Shown here: positions 5,421 through 41,914 of the stretch, piece after piece
Layout of the letters: each line of letters begins with the position of its first letter
Numbering within the stretch: the first letter of the stretch is position 1
Sequence record: PP449093.1
Source of the DNA: Escherichia coli phage phiS
DNA: 64,000 nt
Reading direction: 5' to 3' (one strand)
Notes under the pieces: model-generated
The model's input: only the letters and a program-made list of their open reading frames with translations
Databases searched by the model: none
Told to the model about the DNA's origin: nothing
Program-made: the position numbers and the translations under genes

Positions 5421-5695
5421 TGGACAAGAAAACAGCGTTAATGGTTTACATGCTACGCGAAGACCACGGTCTTAATTTTGTTGATATTGCTAAGAAGATT
5501 GGCGGGATCAGCGGACAAGATGCGGCTAAGGCATGGTTGATGGTAAAAGATGCACGCGAGGCTTACGCCAGCCGTGAAAAGGTTGTTTATCGTAAACACC
5601 ACATCAACAAAAAATTTAAAAATAAAGTTCAAAAACGTGTTGACATGCCAAATAACACTGTTATAATGGACGCATTCAAACGGGCAATGTCCTGA
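5420..5695 (+). CDS. hypothetical basic protein (91 aa)
   Basis: ATG at 5420 (M37 of track ORF 5312..5695) overlapping upstream stop; coupling typical of T4 early genes. Confidence 0.4.
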   Translation: MDKKTALMVYMLREDHGLNFVDIAKKIGGISGQDAAKAWLMVKDAREAYASREKVVYRKHHINKKFKNKVQKRVDMPNNTVIMDAFKRAMS

Positions 5696-28412: not shown

Positions 28413-30215
28413 TTAACCTACCCTTAACCAGCGATGAACGGTACGATATGGAGGAAGAATACCCATCATTGATGGATCAGCATTTCCAGAATTAACTTTT
28501 ACGATATCCTCTCTATATTTCGTAAACGCTGGACCTGCCGCATCAGGATCAACTTGACAACCACCAATGATAATTGACCCTGTATCGTCTTTCACCAAAA
28601 CACGATCGCTGGATTGTAATTCAGGAATCATATCTTTCTTGATTTGATAGGCAACTTCACCACCAGTACCACCAGCGGTGTGTGTAGGTTGTCCATGAAT
28701 ATCAAGATCGTTATTGTTTAATGCAAAATTCTGGTCGCTGGCATCAGAAGACCAACCAGCAAGAAATTCTCCTTCCGCATACCGAACCCAGATACCAATA
28801 CCCATATATGTCGCTGGGTTAGCTGGGTTATGTGCGTTTTCGTATATCGTGCCGATCGGATGGAAAATATCAAACAGTGCATATATATCCATAATTCGAC
28901 CTGAATACTCTTCTGCCGGACGAGTGTTTTTCTGGCTAGGATTCTGGAAGTCGGTATATTCAATTTGTTTTGTTAAATTAACTTCGTCTTCGTTATTGAG
29001 ATAAATCTTGTCTGCTTTTTCTTTAATTCCGCCGACACCATCCCATTCTAATAGAGTTCCGATATCGTTATTAAACCAACGAATTGTTATAGTATCTCTA
29101 TTGTCCAACGCTTTAGCTAATTTAATCCCTGTTACAATGCTATTCTCATCAAATACCAGTGAATAATCTTCTCCAGACTGTACCCACTGACCGCCAGCAA
29201 GTGCGCAACTCTCTTCGGTTTCTCCGTCAGCACCTTCACAAACAAACGAAGGAAGATCAGCATCACCAGCTTTAATCATTTGAGTACCATTTATTAATAA
29301 CTCAAATGAATTTGGGTTAATTATATCACGTTTACTAACTCCCAAATCAGCATTGGTAAATTCTTTTTTCGTCGATAAATCACCTACCCACACTTCACCC
29401 GGAATAGTTTCTAGTGCTGTCATTCCGGTATCATACACTCTAATTGTGTGTGTGATATAACTAGATCGGAATGATGCAATTCCGTCCATATATGTAATAA
29501 TTTGAACGGTGTCCCCAGCCGAACAAGGAAAACGAAGTTTTATGCTTTTGCCATCAAGTTCAACAAGTGATCCATCCTCACCAATTGAACCGTAGTTAGA
29601 GTCATTACTAAAAGACTTGCCATAATATAAAAGGTTTCCTCGATAATATACTTCAACATTTCGAGTGTTATATGTGTTAGAACCAAATACATTAGGGAAA
29701 TCTGTTTGCCCTTCTGTGGCAATATAAACTTCCTTAGCTACTGTGCTTAGGTCAGACGTGGTGATCGTGTCAACTCGCTTGTTTTCGATATATTCCCAGC
29801 GTCCAGGCGCACAATAAACCAGTTCAACATCCATAAAATCTTTATACAACTCACGGTCGATTGGAGATCCCTTAATGGTATCACCTTGTGCTGGCTTCAA
29901 TGTTACGTTATGTGCAGCCCATGAGCGCCAAACATCACGAAGTTTAATTGTTTTATTGTAATCACTCGCGCTTCCTTTAGGCAATTCAACAGAAACAGCG
30001 TTGTTCGTTGTATTAATTGCCCATGCATCACCAAAATTTGGTTTTAATACTGGTTGTGTGTGAGTTTTCCACGCGCCGGATGCATGGGGGATATCACCGT
30101 CCCCCAGCTTAGTATAAAGTTCAGAAAAGTTGTCATTAATCTTTTGACCGCCTTTTCTTAGATAATCACCTGTACCGTCATCAACAACGTTACCGATATT
30201 AATTAATTGTTTCAT
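28413..30215 (-). CDS. 10: baseplate wedge protein gp10
   Basis: N-terminus INIGNVVDDGTGDYLRKGG as in T4 gp10. Confidence 0.9.
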   Translation of the reverse strand: MKQLINIGNVVDDGTGDYLRKGGQKINDNFSELYTKLGDGDIPHASGAWKTHTQPVLKPNFGDAWAINTTNNAVSVELPKGSASDYNKTIKLRDVWRSWAAHNVTLKPAQGDTIKGSPIDRELYKDFMDVELVYCAPGRWEYIENKRVDTITTSDLSTVAKEVYIATEGQTDFPNVFGSNTYNTRNVEVYYRGNLLYYGKSFSNDSNYGSIGEDGSLVELDGKSIKLRFPCSAGDTVQIITYMDGIASFRSSYITHTIRVYDTGMTALETIPGEVWVGDLSTKKEFTNADLGVSKRDIINPNSFELLINGTQMIKAGDADLPSFVCEGADGETEESCALAGGQWVQSGEDYSLVFDENSIVTGIKLAKALDNRDTITIRWFNNDIGTLLEWDGVGGIKEKADKIYLNNEDEVNLTKQIEYTDFQNPSQKNTRPAEEYSGRIMDIYALFDIFHPIGTIYENAHNPANPATYMGIGIWVRYAEGEFLAGWSSDASDQNFALNNNDLDIHGQPTHTAGGTGGEVAYQIKKDMIPELQSSDRVLVKDDTGSIIIGGCQVDPDAAGPAFTKYREDIVKVNSGNADPSMMGILPPYRTVHRWLRVG

Positions 30216-31066
30216 GTAGCAACCCCGATTTTAATAGTGTCTACGGCTTTAACTGCTAAACGAATATTTTCGCCAGTAGCCTTATACTCTGCATATACTT
30301 TATCGCCGGAACCGATGAAATAACGAACTTTGTATAGCTCATCTTCTGTCTTCTGCAAAACTGCATATTCCGTCGCATAAACTTTTCCGGCTTTAGAATC
30401 AATCATCAGTAGCGTTTCACTTGAACGCATTTTTGAACCGGATGTATTGCTAGCGGTAGTTAATAATTTGATGGAAACGTATTCTGTTTTTGCGGCAATA
30501 GCAACGTTTGTTGCTACTCCAGTTACGTTAACTGTTTTATCTAATGGCATTGTTGTATCGGTAAACATACTTTCGATACCCAATCGCCATGTTACGCGAC
30601 TACCTTCAACGGCAGTACACCAAACAGTGACTTTTGAGAAAGGTTGAGTTATTACCGCGTCACCTGAATACCCGCTAATAGAATCACCTGCTTGAGTTCG
30701 AATATTGAGCGGTGTCGTCGTTGAAAAGCTACCGTTACTATTTATGAATACAACACCCTCACCAACCTTTGCTTTAGGTAGAATAGCAATAAGTGCGCCT
30801 TGAGTTGTATCGATATCGTGTAGACTCCCAATCTCAACAGCGGAACCAGCGTAGCTTTGACGTGGATGTTTCTGATAGTATCCGGTTGCATGAATAACCA
30901 TTCTTCCCACGCCGTGGTCTATGTCTTTAAACCGTTGATCAGCGAATGCGTCATAGATTGAATCAAAGTTATCGTTAATTTTATTACCGCCATCATATAA
31001 GATATCGCCAGTCGATGGATTGCCGACAGTACCTGTGTCTATTCTTTTCTTTGGAACTTGTGCCAT
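30212..31066 (-). CDS. 9: baseplate wedge protein gp9 (long tail fiber socket)
   Basis: Similar to T4 gp9 (PKK.IDTG..GN.STGDIL.DGGNKIN, HATGYYQKH). Confidence 0.85.
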   Translation of the reverse strand: MAQVPKKRIDTGTVGNPSTGDILYDGGNKINDNFDSIYDAFADQRFKDIDHGVGRMVIHATGYYQKHPRQSYAGSAVEIGSLHDIDTTQGALIAILPKAKVGEGVVFINSNGSFSTTTPLNIRTQAGDSISGYSGDAVITQPFSKVTVWCTAVEGSRVTWRLGIESMFTDTTMPLDKTVNVTGVATNVAIAAKTEYVSIKLLTTASNTSGSKMRSSETLLMIDSKAGKVYATEYAVLQKTEDELYKVRYFIGSGDKVYAEYKATGENIRLAVKAVDTIKIGVAT

Positions 31067-31093: not shown

Positions 31094-31101
31094 TATTTAT
31101 A
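31094..31101 (-). promoter_or_regulatory. late promoter TATAAATA upstream of gene 9
   Basis: tatttata on plus strand 28 nt upstream of gp9 ATG, just downstream of the MTase cassette terminator. Confidence 0.55.
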
Positions 31102-31111
31102 AAATACATAC

Positions 31112-31137
31112 AAAAAAGCCGCCCACAAGGACGGCTT
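31112..31137 (-). terminator. rho-independent terminator after methyltransferase gene
   Basis: agccgtcc-ttgt-gggcggct hairpin followed by tttttt on minus strand. Confidence 0.65.
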
Positions 31138-31141
31138 ATAA

Positions 31142-31981
31142 TTAAATGTCAAACAAATCTGAGAGCGTCCCAGACTCGCTTTCCTGTTTCGGTAAGGTAA
31201 TATCCTTACTTTCTTCTATTTGTTCGTTAGGACGTGATTTAGGCGCTTCTACGGCTTCTTTCTCGTAATACCGAACCTCAACCACTTCTGTTAAAACGTT
31301 GGTACTATGCCATTCATCGCGATAGATTGATGTATCGATCCCGCATCCGGCGTAAGTCACCAAACCAGTTTGTTTGCTCCATTTTAGATATTTATTAGAC
31401 TTCACTGATTCATCATAATAAGGTCTGCCGGAATAAGCAAACCCAGCGGAACTAGCAGGAACAATAAAATAACCTACATCGGCAAACTTCTGGCCTAACG
31501 TCATAACCTTAAATTCAAACTCACCGCCAGTATATTCAAATACATCCTTTGTGTCTGTAGTATTGATTTTACCGAAAGGTGGATTGCTGATCACCACATC
31601 GAATTTTTCGTTTGACTCAAATTCGAATACATCGCTGGTGATCCATTCTGCCTCCGGTAATAGTCGCTTGCCAATCAGCGCAAATTCTGGATTGAGTTCG
31701 ACGCATACGATCTTTTCTGGCTTACAACGATGTAACATACAAAAAGATAAGCGACCGATCCCCGCACAAAGATCTAATACTTTTCCGGTGCAATATGCAT
31801 CAATGGTAAAATCCCAGGCAAGCCATTCTGGGGTAAAGAATGCACCGGAACCACCTAGTCCATCGCCATGATAGTTGTTATAGCAAAATTCTTTTTCTTC
31901 AAATGTCAATGGACGATCTGAATTAATCAACTCCATCACCCGATCGTGTAATTTTTGTTCTTGTTTAGAAAGTCGTGCCAT
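31142..31981 (-). CDS. gamma-class N6-adenine DNA methyltransferase (NPPF)
   Basis: FFTPEW then motif I VLDLCAGIG then motif IV NPPFG (order I before IV); DNA versus RNA target not provable from sequence. Confidence 0.65.
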   Translation of the reverse strand: MARLSKQEQKLHDRVMELINSDRPLTFEEKEFCYNNYHGDGLGGSGAFFTPEWLAWDFTIDAYCTGKVLDLCAGIGRLSFCMLHRCKPEKIVCVELNPEFALIGKRLLPEAEWITSDVFEFESNEKFDVVISNPPFGKINTTDTKDVFEYTGGEFEFKVMTLGQKFADVGYFIVPASSAGFAYSGRPYYDESVKSNKYLKWSKQTGLVTYAGCGIDTSIYRDEWHSTNVLTEVVEVRYYEKEAVEAPKSRPNEQIEESKDITLPKQESESGTLSDLFDI

Positions 31982-32313
31982 TATTTAACCTTTGCTGTGA
32001 CGGTAACGCTATGTCCCAAATAAACATGAGACATAAAGAACACAAAGTTTTTAAATTGCGGATTCTTACGAATCCATCGTTTCAATTTTCGAATGCAAGT
32101 TATACGATGGTCATAATTAGAATAACTAAATTCAATACCCTGTTTCATCATCTCGTGCATTTCTTCGTATGTGTGCCATTGGTTATCATGTTTACAAAAC
32201 CAATGAGTACCATAGAGTTTAGGATCTTGTGCACGTAGACCATAGTAATGCTTTTGCATTGGGAACTTAGCTTTATTCATTGTGTAGTGCAATTTAATAT
32301 TTACGCGTGCCAT
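31981..32313 (-). CDS. hypothetical protein (110 aa) co-transcribed with methyltransferase
   Basis: ATGA-type overlap with downstream MTase ORF. Confidence 0.45.
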   Translation of the reverse strand: MARVNIKLHYTMNKAKFPMQKHYYGLRAQDPKLYGTHWFCKHDNQWHTYEEMHEMMKQGIEFSYSNYDHRITCIRKLKRWIRKNPQFKNFVFFMSHVYLGHSVTVTAKVK

Positions 32314-32558
32314 TTTCTATTACTCCACATACCGAAAGTTGGATTATACACAAAATAGATAGCTTCGTCGATAGTCTTGAATCGTTTAGTGTCATTCATG
32401 AAGTTGATACCCTCCCATAGTTCATCGGTGTAATCGGCTAATGATGAATGAGTATGATCGATGATCTCTCCGATCTTTTCACCGTTCGCGATCACATCCC
32501 AACCGCAAGGGGATACCTGAATTGCTTCACAATTATCTGTAAATTTACGACGTGCCAT
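32301..32558 (-). CDS. hypothetical protein (85 aa), first gene of methyltransferase cassette
   Basis: ATG preceded by GGAGGA RBS and early-type promoter. Confidence 0.45.
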   Translation of the reverse strand: MARRKFTDNCEAIQVSPCGWDVIANGEKIGEIIDHTHSSLADYTDELWEGINFMNDTKRFKTIDEAIYFVYNPTFGMWSNRKWHA

Positions 32559-32587
32559 AATTTATCCTCCGTTGTTTAGATGTGTGT

Positions 32588-32615
32588 ATTATACCTTACC
32601 AAATAAGATTGTCAA
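32588..32615 (-). promoter_or_regulatory. early-type promoter TTGACA-16-TATAAT with conserved acacacatc leader, driving the methyltransferase cassette
   Basis: Same architecture as the early-region promoter cassettes; lies between the gene 8 terminator and ORF 32301..32558. Confidence 0.55.
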
Positions 32616-32625
32616 CACCAAAAAT

Positions 32626-32653
32626 GGAAAAAGCCAACTCTCTCGAATTGGCT
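32626..32653 (-). terminator. terminator after gene 8
   Basis: agccaa...ttggct hairpin followed by ttttt on minus strand. Confidence 0.5.
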
Positions 32654-32668
32654 TTTAAAATCATACAC

Positions 32669-33664
32669 TTAGAACTCAAACAATACAGAAACAAGTTCTG
32701 TTTGATCTAATGACCGAACGATAGGTTGTCGGTTTTCCATGTAGACCATTTCGCCTGAGTGTGGCTCTAAGTCTTGCGGACGATACTTATCTTTAACCGC
32801 TTTAACGTCTGGATCGCTAGGACGTGCTTTCTTTTCCAATGGGTTAAGGATAATGCTTAACTGACGGAAACCAGTATTACCCACTAACGCGGTAGTTGGG
32901 AATTGTGCAGAGTCCATATAAGCCTGAAAACGCAAAGTTACTACTTTCAGCCGATAAAGCAGATTATAGTCATTATACCAGGTGATCACATTGTCATAGC
33001 CCCAACGCGCCGGATCTTGTCGCAGTTCATCGGGGAACGGTACAACAATATGTTCATTGGTGCAACGGTTGATCGCCGCATCAGGTGGAATTGTGTACAG
33101 ATATTCCCAACGATACCCATCACCCATATCAATAGAATCGCCCTTTCCTACAGGTGGCGCAATTGATTCATGAGTGGGGGTCCACTTTCCGCCCAACTTC
33201 AAACACTCTACTTTATCGTCAATGCTTGAAATCGAGCAGTAACCGCGATCAGGAACATCGGTTACGCGATACACCATCCAGCCGCTACCAACATCAGTTC
33301 GGTTATATGGTGCTGAGTTGACAACAACAATGTCATTGATAAAGAATGTGCGCGGGTTATCCTGTCCGGTATCACCCCAATCTTTACGAGGTATAACCGC
33401 ATCAAGAAGTGATTTGTTAATCTTAACCGCCCCCAACATATGGGTCCACATATCAACAACGCCAGCCGTTGAATCGGTCGGATAAGGTGGGGCAAAGCCC
33501 ACCTCTTTTTCGTTTTCTGACCACGGCTCCGAACGTCCAAACGTTCCATAAATTGTAATTTGATTTGCTCCATCGCCTACAGAATTATAGAAGTTCAGAA
33601 GTTTTTCTGTTCTGAATTTGCTAGTAATGATTGAGCGATAGATCACACTATTTTCATTAGCCAT
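32669..33664 (-). CDS. 8: baseplate wedge protein gp8
   Basis: Strong similarity to T4 gp8 (SVIYR.I.TSKFRTEK.LNFYNS, GDGY.WEYL, INRCTNE). Confidence 0.9.
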   Translation of the reverse strand: MANENSVIYRSIITSKFRTEKLLNFYNSVGDGANQITIYGTFGRSEPWSENEKEVGFAPPYPTDSTAGVVDMWTHMLGAVKINKSLLDAVIPRKDWGDTGQDNPRTFFINDIVVVNSAPYNRTDVGSGWMVYRVTDVPDRGYCSISSIDDKVECLKLGGKWTPTHESIAPPVGKGDSIDMGDGYRWEYLYTIPPDAAINRCTNEHIVVPFPDELRQDPARWGYDNVITWYNDYNLLYRLKVVTLRFQAYMDSAQFPTTALVGNTGFRQLSIILNPLEKKARPSDPDVKAVKDKYRPQDLEPHSGEMVYMENRQPIVRSLDQTELVSVLFEF

Positions 33665-39508: not shown

Positions 39509-41308
39509 TCACCCAAGATCAATACGGCTACCATCAATTTTAACTGTACCCGATGCAATATCTTTAACGTTTGCACCACAATTACGGGACCAGTCACCAT
39601 TAACCTGATCTGATTTAGTGCCATTGACGGTCATATTAAAATTACCTTCAACGGTTAAATCATAGTTACCTTTAATTGTCTCGGTAGTATTACCCTCGAT
39701 CATTAATTCAGCATTACCCTTGACGTTAGCCGTCAAATTAGCGTCAAGCTGTGCGGTAACATCACCTACAACATGCATATTCGCAGTACCCTCAACGGTC
39801 TGATTAACATTGCCACGAATAAATTCAGTGACGTTACCATCAACGGTTTGCATCACATTACCCATATAATAAACTTGCGCGTCACCTTCAACAACAACTT
39901 GCAGATTGCCTTTAACGTTGACTTTGCGACCTTGCTTAACGATCAAATAATCATCACCTTCAATCTTTTCTACCCTCGTTCCGTCCGGTCTGGTTTCTTC
40001 AAATGTACCAGAAGGATGTTTACGATGATATCGCTCGTGAGAAGGAGTATCATCAATCTCTATAATATGACCGCTCTCTGACTCGTATACATGGTTATAA
40101 GGATACCTTGCAGAATACGAACTCTTAGGCTCTTTAAACATGATTCGTGTGTCTTGTGGGGTAAACGGTGCTTCTGGGTCTTCTTCTGCTCTCTGTGTCT
40201 TATAGGCAGCAATACGGGCTTTTCTTAAACGCTCTCTAGGATCATCAGAAATTGATTCCTCTTTCTTTGTAGCAATTACGCCATATGATTCTAAGTTACC
40301 AGTAAGAATAATTTTAGAAACACGGTTGGAGCGTCCTGGAGTTTGACTAGCCCATACAGATTGACGTAATCCATCATAGGCTTGTTTCCATTCTTCCGCC
40401 AGCATTGCAGCAAGACTATTCTTAAATTTACCCAATCCACCAACGCCCATTTGAAACGCCATATTTTCTAATGCCATACGACGAGAAGCATTACATTTAT
40501 TATAGACAGGTGCAATACGTGGATGTTTGCGCATATCACGACGGGTCTTTTCTATATCGTCAGCAAATACTTTACTAACTTCTTCGGCGGTAAGTCTTCC
40601 GTTTGTAACTTCACGCCCTACCAGCTTAGAAAGTTCATTATTGATAATACCCAGATCACTGGTTTTCTTATAAATGATCAAATGCCCGATCCCTATTGTC
40701 GGATATCCTTCTGAATCAAGATACCATTTCTCGCGATATCCCTCATCGCCCCGCAGCATTTTTTCTATTGTAAAATCAGGATTATCATCAACCGGAATTT
40801 GGTCTAATGGCTCGTCGTCTGGATTTACTGCAACTCCAGTGTTTTCATCTCGAATATAGACACTATCAGGTTTTGTTGTTTGTCCGGTTTCTGGGTTAAT
40901 ACCGCCACGGGCAAGAATATTAACATCATTACCAATATAACGAGGATATGCACCAGAAGGGTCACAAAAACCTTCTGTAGTGAGTGGTTTCTCTGTATAT
41001 TGTCCGGCAATAGTACCCAGAATAACGCAGTTTAAATAACGTTCATCTAAAGCCAAACCAAATACCATTGAACCTTCAACAATACCAGTAGGACTTTGAC
41101 CTATACCGGAGATCGCCGCGCTTGTAATATCTTGTACTGGAGTAATCCATAATAGATCTTCGGTTGGGAGACCTTGAATGTCACCGTGTGCGGATAGCGA
41201 AGGATGTATACCATGAATCCTAACCTGAACACGCCCCAGCATTAATGGGTCTTCCCTGTTTTCTACAATTCCGGTAAACCATTTAACGGAGTTATTAAAC
41301 ATTAGCAT
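39509..41308 (-). CDS. 5: baseplate hub and tail lysozyme gp5
   Basis: OB-fold N-terminus, T4-lysozyme-like domain (DSEGYPTIGIGHLI), C-terminal VxGxxxxxG beta-helix repeats. Confidence 0.85.
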   Translation of the reverse strand: MLMFNNSVKWFTGIVENREDPLMLGRVQVRIHGIHPSLSAHGDIQGLPTEDLLWITPVQDITSAAISGIGQSPTGIVEGSMVFGLALDERYLNCVILGTIAGQYTEKPLTTEGFCDPSGAYPRYIGNDVNILARGGINPETGQTTKPDSVYIRDENTGVAVNPDDEPLDQIPVDDNPDFTIEKMLRGDEGYREKWYLDSEGYPTIGIGHLIIYKKTSDLGIINNELSKLVGREVTNGRLTAEEVSKVFADDIEKTRRDMRKHPRIAPVYNKCNASRRMALENMAFQMGVGGLGKFKNSLAAMLAEEWKQAYDGLRQSVWASQTPGRSNRVSKIILTGNLESYGVIATKKEESISDDPRERLRKARIAAYKTQRAEEDPEAPFTPQDTRIMFKEPKSSYSARYPYNHVYESESGHIIEIDDTPSHERYHRKHPSGTFEETRPDGTRVEKIEGDDYLIVKQGRKVNVKGNLQVVVEGDAQVYYMGNVMQTVDGNVTEFIRGNVNQTVEGTANMHVVGDVTAQLDANLTANVKGNAELMIEGNTTETIKGNYDLTVEGNFNMTVNGTKSDQVNGDWSRNCGANVKDIASGTVKIDGSRIDLG

Positions 41309-41319
41309 AATTAATCACC

Positions 41320-41874
41320 TTACACATCAGCCTTTTCCATTTCTCGAATGAATGCGTTAATAAATTGTTTAATTTGTGTAGGATCTATGATCTTGATCTT
41401 GCGTCGTTCCTCGTTGCGGAGGATCGCATCTTCCAGTGTATCTACTGCCGATAATGCACCATGAAACTGCAAATGACGGTGATGAATATCACCTTTATCA
41501 TACCAATTGCTTGATCCTTTCGGATATTCGGTAAGATTCCAATACTTGTTTCCGTCAATATCAACGTGGTATAATACTTGATTTCCTCCTACATTTGCAT
41601 ATCGTTGTTCGGCTGATTCATATGCTGTCTCTTGATCGGTGATCCAGTCATGAAACGGATCGTATACGTCATTAAGCATCAGCAAGATCCAATAAAGTTG
41701 CTGGTTTCCGTATACTTCATATGCAACCTGTTCCGGTCGTGGGCTACCTTGAATGTAATATGTTTGTATGTTATAATCAGAAATTATTGCATTGAAATAT
41801 GCGCGGTAATTGCGCACAATGTCAGTAATCATCTTGCCGTTGTATTCAATGGCAGGGAAGAAAGAAAAGAGCAT
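41320..41874 (-). CDS. 53: baseplate wedge protein gp53
   Basis: 184 aa; size and synteny. Confidence 0.7.
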   Translation of the reverse strand: MLFSFFPAIEYNGKMITDIVRNYRAYFNAIISDYNIQTYYIQGSPRPEQVAYEVYGNQQLYWILLMLNDVYDPFHDWITDQETAYESAEQRYANVGGNQVLYHVDIDGNKYWNLTEYPKGSSNWYDKGDIHHRHLQFHGALSAVDTLEDAILRNEERRKIKIIDPTQIKQFINAFIREMEKADV

Positions 41875-41906: not shown

Positions 41907-41914
41907 TATTTATA
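41907..41914 (-). promoter_or_regulatory. late promoter TATAAATA upstream of gene 53 (divergent region with gene 4)
   Basis: tatttata on plus strand 33 nt upstream of gp53 ATG; plus strand carries near-consensus GATAAATA 24 nt before the gene 4 ATG. Confidence 0.5.

Follow-up and report, generated by a model that had tools for sequence, protein, structure and literature searches.

The cassette between genes 8 and 9 of phage phiS

The window analysed here is a stretch of 64,000 nucleotides (nt) from Escherichia coli phage phiS (PP449093.1), and all coordinates refer to it. Between the baseplate genes 8 and 9, its minus strand carries a cassette of three open reading frames (ORFs), which encode proteins of 85 amino acids (aa; 32301..32558; Phi1 ORF140, phrog_16603), 110 aa (31981..32313; Phi1 ORF142, phrog_12630) and 279 aa (31142..31981; Phi1 ORF143, RB49ORF143w). 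The last one is a putative methyltransferase, and its C-terminal tail resembles the end of the phage DNA polymerase. The three ORFs, like all the other elements listed in a preliminary description of this DNA, are found at or a few bases from where that description had placed them. Because neighbouring ORFs overlap (by 13 nt between the 85-aa and 110-aa ORFs, by 1 nt between the 110-aa ORF and the methyltransferase gene), the cassette forms one translationally coupled unit. All three genes (starts at 32558, 32313 and 31981) open with the identical sequence ATGGCACG (Met-Ala-Arg); gene 9 opens with ATGGCACA.

With the 2-kb region as query, 58 phage records match at 90-99% identity, and every listed record is a Krischvirus or an RB49/Phi1/JSE-like coliphage. 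By these matches the phage is a Krischvirus, i.e. one of the pseudo-T-even relatives of T4. On the upstream side, gene 8 (32669..33664, minus strand; baseplate wedge subunit, 331 aa) is the last gene of a late transcription unit, and on the downstream side gene 9 (30212..31066, minus strand; baseplate wedge / tail-fibre connector, 284 aa) is the first gene of the following one. Both names are based on the annotation of near-identical genomes and on Pfam matches in relatives (Phage-Gp8 and T4_gp9_10_N, respectively). The cassette genes are already known as RB49ORF140w-143w or Phi1 ORF140, 142 and 143, and the terminator-plus-promoter element ahead of them is of a published kind. New here are the position of the cassette, its conserved methyltransferase payload and a predicted clamp hook. 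Since the cassette is largely a known gene in a published regulatory element, the added value lies in the clamp-type tail and in a family distribution matched to the clamp.

Early and late transcription signals

The regulatory elements follow each other in a compact order on the minus strand. Terminator-like hairpin 1 (32629..32656), a 12-pair stem followed by a T run, lies just 3' of the gene 8 stop and is annotated as a terminator in genome G2494. It is followed by a sigma70-type, putatively early promoter (32588..32615), TTGACA-16-TATAAT, which matches the consensus at 12 of 12 positions with a 16-nt spacer, and then, ahead of the first ATG, by a leader ACACACATC (32587-32579) and a ribosome-binding site GGAGGA (32570-32565; together 32565..32587). 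Hairpin 2 (31116..31137; 9 pairs, 6 of them G-C, then a T run), also annotated in G2494, closes the cassette, and a T4-type late promoter TATAAATA for gene 9 stands at 31094..31101. Thus the terminators on both sides, the cassette's own promoter and the separate late promoter of gene 9 are all borne out. The preliminary description had also equated the leader and ribosome-binding site with those of early-region cassettes. This holds for ACACACATC, which occurs directly 3' of two sigma70-like early-region promoters (61571 and 63663), but only approximately for the ribosome-binding site, which is GGAGAA at both of those promoters and not GGAGGA. The full promoter-plus-leader pattern occurs once in the window, with none expected from shuffled sequence. 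On this strand, only two copies of TATAAATA were found between 26 and 42 kb, at 31101-31094 and at 41914, the latter upstream of an ORF (41320-41874) that is gp53 by synteny with the metagenomic relative L018. TTGACA-16-TATAAT recurs without mismatch at two further places in the window, both in its hoc/inh/uvsW part: 5640-5667 (plus strand) and 3499-3472 (minus strand).

An arrangement of this kind has been described for RB49 and Phi1 as the promoter-early stem-loop, or PeSL (Arbiol et al. 2010, PMC2839356; Comeau et al. 2014, PMC4122927). PeSL stem-loops terminate transcription and PeSL promoters are strongly active in reporter assays (PMC2839356). The cassette shares with the PeSL cassettes an intergenic stem-loop terminator (hairpin 1), an AT-rich stretch, a consensus sigma70 promoter and a Shine-Dalgarno sequence ahead of non-core ORFs, and its variable, mosaic ORF content fits PeSL-mediated shuffling. 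However, PeSLs are described as clustering in hyperplastic regions and as scarce in blocks of virion genes (PMC4122927), while the present one is located in the baseplate block. ORF140-143 are not mentioned in the main text of the 2010 paper (PMC2839356), and no discussion of the gene 8/9 site was found in either PeSL paper (PMC2839356, PMC4122927).

In T4, genes 8 and 9 are adjacent, as had been stated, with a spacer of 63 nt that contains a G+C hairpin with a T run and then directly TATAAATA. Because this spacer already has both elements, the cassette lies between a pre-existing terminator and a late promoter, and compared with the T4-type junction the insert brings in the genes together with their early promoter and one more terminator. 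The idea that the cassette was inserted into the late baseplate operon has to be abandoned for this reason: no operon is interrupted, and the cassette sits at the border of two late transcription units.

The same layout is found in divergent relatives. In the metagenomic relatives L018 and L019, gp8 is followed by a hairpin, TTGACA-16-TATAAT, the methyltransferase, a hairpin, TATAAATA and gp9, and the small ORFs are absent; in L020 another ORF of 154 aa precedes the methyltransferase, with the ACACACATC leader present. The methyltransferases of these relatives are only about 64% identical to that of phiS. Generally, the elements persist while hairpin stems and promoter spacers diverge in sequence. 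A hairpin with another stem is kept at the position of hairpin 1, where T4 has one as well. The promoter of L018 is a perfect consensus with an unrelated spacer and that of L020 reads TTGACA-17-GATACT. Counterparts of hairpin 2 with differing stems occur in L018 and L020, and TATAAATA stands 5' of gene 9 in L018, L020 and T4. Among closer genomes, the promoter is kept in G2494 and RB49, and the first hexamer is TTTACA in Phi1.

The three genes were initially taken as one cassette, which does not hold as a module, for these relatives keep the methyltransferase with no small ORF or with the other 154-aa ORF. A conserved three-gene module was likewise rejected on wider comparison: the 85-aa and 110-aa proteins are not beside the methyltransferase in RB43, Matisse or Citrobacter. 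By this distribution the methyltransferase is the lasting payload, and shuffling affects the slot ahead of it, as the PeSL model predicts.

As for timing, read-through from the gene 53-8 unit might account for most expression of the cassette, which would then be late, with the sigma70-like site playing a minor part. Strand and orientation are the same as those of the late genes, a consensus match is no proof of function, and promoter-like sites overall were no more frequent in a 4-kb scan than in shuffled sequence. Yet the site at 32615-32588 is the sole 12/12 match in that scan, it is preserved in divergent relatives that have other spacers, and it comes after a strong hairpin that has a T run. 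In addition, comparable PeSL promoters reach about 13,000 Miller units (PMC2839356), and the homologues in RB43 and Slopekvirus stand among replication genes. Mainly late expression is therefore unlikely in our view, though it is the alternative that we take most seriously.

The catalytic domain

The catalytic domain (residues 1-240; 31262..31981, minus strand) consists of N-terminal helices followed by motif X GAFFTPEW (residues 46-53), motif I DLCAGIG (70-76) and motif IV NPPFG (133-137). The order X (FxTP), I, IV ((N/D)PP(F/Y)) is that of gamma-class amino-methyltransferases, and the earlier assignment to this class from FFTPEW, DLCAGIG and NPPFG is supported by their conservation. Across an alignment of 33 homologues no variation is seen at G46, A47, F48, F49, P51, C72-G76, N133, P134, F136 and G137, and P135 is shared by at least 90% of the sequences. 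The structure model is confident for this domain, and its similarity to the fold of gamma-class N6-adenine DNA methyltransferases extends to the N-terminal helical part. The enzyme is probably an orphan amino-methyltransferase acting on adenine N6, which is the most likely target because of the NPPF motif.

Like T4 Dam, it would be a phage-encoded orphan adenine methyltransferase. It is not of the Dam type, as had been recognised: Dam belongs to the DPPY class according to the preliminary description, whereas NPPF and the order X-I-IV are found here, and Krischvirus has a separate dam gene (Phi1 ORF063). With 240 residues, it is far smaller than HsdM, M.TaqI, M.BseCI and MmeI as well as METTL5-type enzymes. 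It also differs from the gamma-class N6-adenine DNA methyltransferases in having no separate target-recognition domain or specificity subunit.

Profile searches gave a mixed picture. The best Pfam match is the methyltransferase small domain (MTS; 36.4 bits, cut-off 23), which is not specific by itself and had been tabulated as a weak match for RB49ORF143w in 2006 (PMC1524935). Eco57I (PF07669) lies barely above its cut-off (26.2 vs 25.3 bits) and N6_Mtase (PF02384) below it (15.8 vs 20.4 bits), while PHROG 3820, named 'DNA methyltransferase', aligns with the whole protein (E = 3e-115). Existing annotations conflict with each other. RB49ORF143w / Phi1 ORF143, together with ORF140-142, make up the gene set of phiS at 95-99% identity and in the same place between genes 8 and 9. 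The methyltransferase gene is called hypothetical protein, DNA methyltransferase, prmC or rRNA guanine-N2 methyltransferase, and none of these annotations mentions the C-terminal tail.

The labels raise the question whether the protein is an RNA or protein amino-methyltransferase (RsmC-, METTL5-, TrmN6- or PrmC-like) that acts on the host translation apparatus, in which case the likeness of its tail would be irrelevant to the substrate. MTS being the top Pfam match at 36 bits, the partial NCBIfam matches to PrmC, PrmB and RsmC, the citation of rRNA guanine-N2-methyltransferase in the RB49 annotation, the name prmC in several GenBank records and the absence of a large DNA-recognition domain all fit such an enzyme. 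However, the NCBIfam matches cover residues of about 60-145 only and are far under the cut-offs. PrmC/HemK was rejected at 35.3 bits against a cut-off of 199.1 (TIGR03534; only residues 66-137 match), and an RsmC-type rRNA m2G enzyme, as in the RB49 annotation, at 25.9 bits against 295 (NF007023). A match to an rRNA or protein methyltransferase family had been named beforehand as the result that would speak against a DNA-modifying enzyme. The outcome is ambiguous in that a generic family comes first, although all PrmC and RsmC equivalogs fail by a wide margin. Three further observations, presented below, are hard to reconcile with an RNA or protein substrate. The tail equals the polymerase clamp hook and clamp motifs occur in a third of the family, which is hard to explain off DNA; the family copies examined are confined to mobile elements or a chromosomal island; and one copy is fused to a DNA-methylase-like domain. 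We thus consider an RNA or protein enzyme quite improbable, and the labels 'prmC' and 'rRNA methyltransferase' should be used with caution for this gene. The earlier view of a DNA-modification-like gene survives as a likely DNA-directed role, now resting on the clamp-binding tail instead of the catalytic motifs.

A C-terminal tail that resembles the polymerase clamp hook

After residue 240 the modelled chain is disordered, with a predicted local distance difference test (pLDDT) score below 50 for residues 252-269. This region is made up of an acidic linker (residues 241-271; 31169..31261, minus strand), which varies in length and sequence among homologues, and a C-terminal octapeptide TLSDLFDI (31145..31168, minus strand), a predicted binding motif for the gp45 sliding clamp. 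The protein ends in ...ESGTLSDLFDI, while the DNA polymerase gp43 of Phi1 ends in ...VASLTDLFDI. The C-termini of gp43, gp55 and gp33 are known to be interchangeable clamp ligands on variable unstructured linkers (PMC2988020). The methyltransferase shares with them a hydrophobic-acidic extreme C-terminus, near-identical to that of gp43, on a variable disordered linker; it differs in that the hook is borne by a methyltransferase, and the reviews consulted list no such enzyme as a gp45 ligand.

The likeness was scored by comparing 690 C-termini of Krischvirus-genome ORFs with the gp43 octapeptide. The methyltransferase tail is the best non-self match (first of 689), with a score of 32 compared to a background of -7.5 +/- 6.9, or 5.7 standard deviations above it. 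The next-best matches are DNA ligase (19) and gp33 (12). The ligase, encoded by Phi1 gene 30 (L012 24133-25629), ends in ...TVKEVFDV and is the third-best match to the gp43 peptide, ahead of gp33; its C-terminus may be an unrecognised clamp hook.

The tail is also found in relatives with other linkers. A 67%-identical homologue has an unrelated linker and the end GTLTDLFDI; TLDFVDFSEI or SLSMFDI is found at this place in other relatives. As the alignment of 33 homologues shows, the majority of chromosomal copies are complete by about residue 240, while the copies from T4-type phages have in addition a linker that is acidic and rich in proline, and then a short end of hydrophobic and acidic residues. 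The methyltransferases of RB43 and Slopekvirus end in NLFTFTIE or SDLFTFTIE. The gp43, gp55 and gp33 proteins of RB43 end in SLNTLFGDDW, TLEMFL and TLDDFM, which have an L-x-x-F core in common. At the nucleotide level, the last 14 nt (31142-31155) are identical to the end of gene 43 (L011 15971-15984), TGTTTGACATTTAA, and the similarity ends upstream; the tail may have been copied from gene 43 or have converged on its end.

It is conceivable that the protein is a freely diffusing orphan DNA methyltransferase and that its gp43-like C-terminus is a chance product or a remnant with no clamp function. The motif has just 8 residues, homologues that lack a tail exist and are presumably active, and the DNA match to gene 43 is limited to those last 14 nt. 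Against this stand the distance of the tail from the background of 690 C-termini, its retention in the 67%-identical homologue despite the unrelated linker, and independent clamp-type motifs at the same position in RB43-like phages and plasmids (see below). Therefore a tail with no clamp function seems to us improbable, about as much so as an RNA or protein substrate. That the protein serves primarily to compete for the clamp or to regulate it, drawing gp45 off the polymerase or gp33/gp55 with catalysis secondary, is very improbable: the hook is the same as that of gp43 and clamp-binding C-termini are interchangeable, but the catalytic and S-adenosylmethionine (SAM)-binding motifs are invariant family-wide, tail-less members included, which points to selection on enzyme activity.

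In the literature no clamp motif was found reported on a phage or bacterial methyltransferase, the search having been made without most subscription journals. The nearest parallel is the eukaryotic pair DNMT1-PCNA, in which a clamp-binding motif on a DNA methyltransferase biases it towards newly replicated DNA (PMC9690074). Unlike the present enzyme, DNMT1 is of the C5-cytosine class, has an internal PIP (PCNA-interacting peptide) box and serves CpG maintenance, so the parallel is an analogy and no homology.

Distribution of the family and of its clamp-type tails

An exhaustive search returned 174 clusters at E < 1e-30. Homologues with 50-62% identity are encoded in enterobacterial chromosomes, for example in Citrobacter at the edge of an island with insertion sequences and an HNH gene. 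Those with about 48% identity come from RB43-like, Slopekvirus and related T4-type phages, and the RB43/Slopekvirus gene sits between the genes for replicative helicase (41) and primase (61). Others are found in Aeromonas, Dickeya, Yersinia, Sinorhizobium and Vibrio phages, in Pseudomonas megaplasmids and in plasmids of Agrobacterium, Sinorhizobium, Roseibium and Streptomyces. All copies whose context was examined are on phages, plasmids or a chromosomal island. No conserved neighbouring gene was found across these contexts, and in the Citrobacter island, the Pseudomonas megaplasmid and the phages the neighbours are mostly hypothetical genes. The copy on the Agrobacterium plasmid is near ParB, DUF932 and ligD, which for the substrate is suggestive only.

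To summarize the C-terminal ends, the last 12 residues of 143 near-full-length cluster representatives were surveyed, with interior windows and 742 unrelated ORFs as controls. QxxLF is present in 30 of 143 representatives, for example as QLSLFDAA, EQLTLF or SQLALF, compared with 0.0 for the interior windows and 0.4% of the unrelated ORFs. LF is present in 49 of 143, compared with 4.6% of the unrelated ORFs. C-terminal QL(S/D)LF is a motif that binds the bacterial beta clamp (PMC9690074). All five plasmid copies examined have clamp-type ends (Pseudomonas QLSLFDAA, Agrobacterium QLSFF, Sinorhizobium QLALL, Roseibium QFALL and Streptomyces GLFDI), and in the Pseudomonas plasmid copy the end is preceded by a 75-residue Pro/Ala linker.

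The hook thus seems to track the clamp of the replicon, being polymerase-like where the phage supplies gp45 and of beta type where the host clamp is used. Indirectly, this pattern argues strongly for an enzyme that acts on DNA at clamps already loaded.

One homologue has a different architecture. In Dickeya phage JA33 (L016 2501-3670) it is fused to a degenerate beta-class N6/N4 DNA-methylase-like domain, which has kept the SAM-binding end and has FSTV in place of DPPY; just downstream there is a distinct gene called 'DNA adenine methylase'. The fused domain looks catalytically dead and is possibly used for DNA binding.

A clamp-tethered DNA methyltransferase as the favoured explanation

Taking these observations together, we think it reasonably probable that the cassette is of PeSL type, located at the terminator/late-promoter junction of genes 8 and 9, and that it encodes an early-made, clamp-tethered orphan DNA methyltransferase, probably specific for adenine N6. 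Host sigma70 RNA polymerase would transcribe the three coupled ORFs early from the consensus promoter. The upstream hairpin would halt late transcripts from genes 53-8 and the downstream hairpin would halt cassette transcripts before gene 9, which would restart from its own late promoter; judging from the PeSL data, the hairpins would in this way separate early and late transcription. The enzyme would be made before or as replication starts. It would consist of the 240-residue catalytic domain, a disordered acidic leash of about 30 residues and a C-terminal mimic of the clamp-binding end of gp43, and this peptide is expected, from its sequence and the literature on gp45 ligands, to anchor the enzyme to gp45 clamps that have been loaded onto phage DNA during its replication. 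Freshly made duplex DNA would then be methylated at the fork or shortly behind it, most likely on adenine N6. The phage, whose cytosine is ordinary, would probably benefit by being shielded from host restriction.

Krischvirus genomes are without homologues of the enzymes that make hydroxymethylcytosine, including hydroxymethyl-dCMP synthase, and the DNA of the isolate TB34 has ordinary cytosine (PMC13390438). Phi1 encodes two further annotated DNA methyltransferases outside the region homologous to the cassette, namely dam (ORF063, 270 aa; L011 39544-40356, Phi1 record 39544-40356) and ORF189 (238 aa, with an FPPC sequence; L012 17297-18013, Phi1 record 117297-118013), both of them located outside the window; neither protein has a clamp-like C-terminus. 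Because the cytosine is unmodified and Phi1 has further methyltransferases, methylation as a protection strategy is plausible. SAP and TB34 are Krischvirus isolates with 99.96% identity, of which SAP is reportedly glucosylated and TB34 canonical, and no responsible genes were found (PMC13390438). The cassette does not explain this difference, since both isolates carry it.

Several points weigh against a clamp-tethered DNA methyltransferase. Its support comes from sequence and models, and methylation, clamp binding and early transcription are all predicted. Among PDB entries, archaeal proteins resembling METTL5 are closest in sequence, and the fold alone does not separate DNA from RNA N6-adenine enzymes. 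In place of a target-recognition domain or specificity partner, only a conserved insertion of about 55 residues (176-230) comes after the core. The cassette is on the late strand, so that it could be expressed late by read-through. The tail is missing in most enterobacterial chromosomal copies and in some phage copies (Aeromonas CC2, Sinorhizobium phiM7), and as tail-less copies exist, tethering is not obligatory. Finally, modified DNA was not detectable in TB34 by high-performance liquid chromatography/mass spectrometry (PMC13390438), and TB34 carries the methyltransferase gene. Because that study (PMC13390438) never addresses methyladenine, the result excludes abundant modification only.

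If the clamp-tethered enzyme is real, coupling to the clamp would allow new DNA to be marked quickly and within one replicon only, in a prokaryotic counterpart to DNMT1-PCNA, and would provide a replication-coupled self mark for protection from restriction and possibly for discrimination between self and host DNA. Methyltransferases would then join the list of clamp clients, and the clamp tail turns a 'putative methyltransferase' into a specific, testable mechanism. The beta-clamp-type tails on plasmid homologues suggest that mobile elements resort to the same device on becoming established in a new host. We put forward, more tentatively, that these enzymes might make up a family of mobile-element-borne orphan DNA methyltransferases riding the sliding clamp, with the hook matched to the clamp by which the element is replicated, and that tethering to gp45 might confine the self mark to phage DNA and leave the host chromosome unmarked. 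Such a phage-only mark is a speculative possibility, which follows from gp45 being loaded only by the phage machinery.

The two small ORFs

The 85-aa and 110-aa proteins have no Pfam or NCBIfam match and belong only to unnamed PHROGs. In the large protein search the small ORFs gave only 5 clusters, and the AlphaFold model of the 110-aa protein is poor (pLDDT 62). No homologue of the 85-aa ORF was found outside Krischvirus and Vequintavirus (rV5-like; about 70% identity), the latter being an unrelated group of myoviruses; the 110-aa ORF is about 59% identical in Vequintavirus and adjoins the 85-aa homologue. The pair is therefore adjacent and in the same order in both groups, at about 60-70% identity, for example in Escherichia phage FV3 (Vequintavirus; L009 3106-3926). 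No methyltransferase was annotated or detected beside the Vequintavirus pair. By this comparison the two genes form a module that appears to move between phage families.

Variation is also seen within Krischvirus. The 110-aa gene has two alleles, with 100% and about 72% identity, and contains a recombinant patch at 32100-32300, in which the identity to RB49 is 63-76% compared with 93-100% in the immediately adjoining windows. In the old RB49 record AY343333 the 85-aa ORF is split into ORF140w/141w through an 11-nt gap (L010 1403-1649). The newer RB49 record OZ035808.1 has the intact 85-aa ORF, and the split is probably a sequencing or strain difference.

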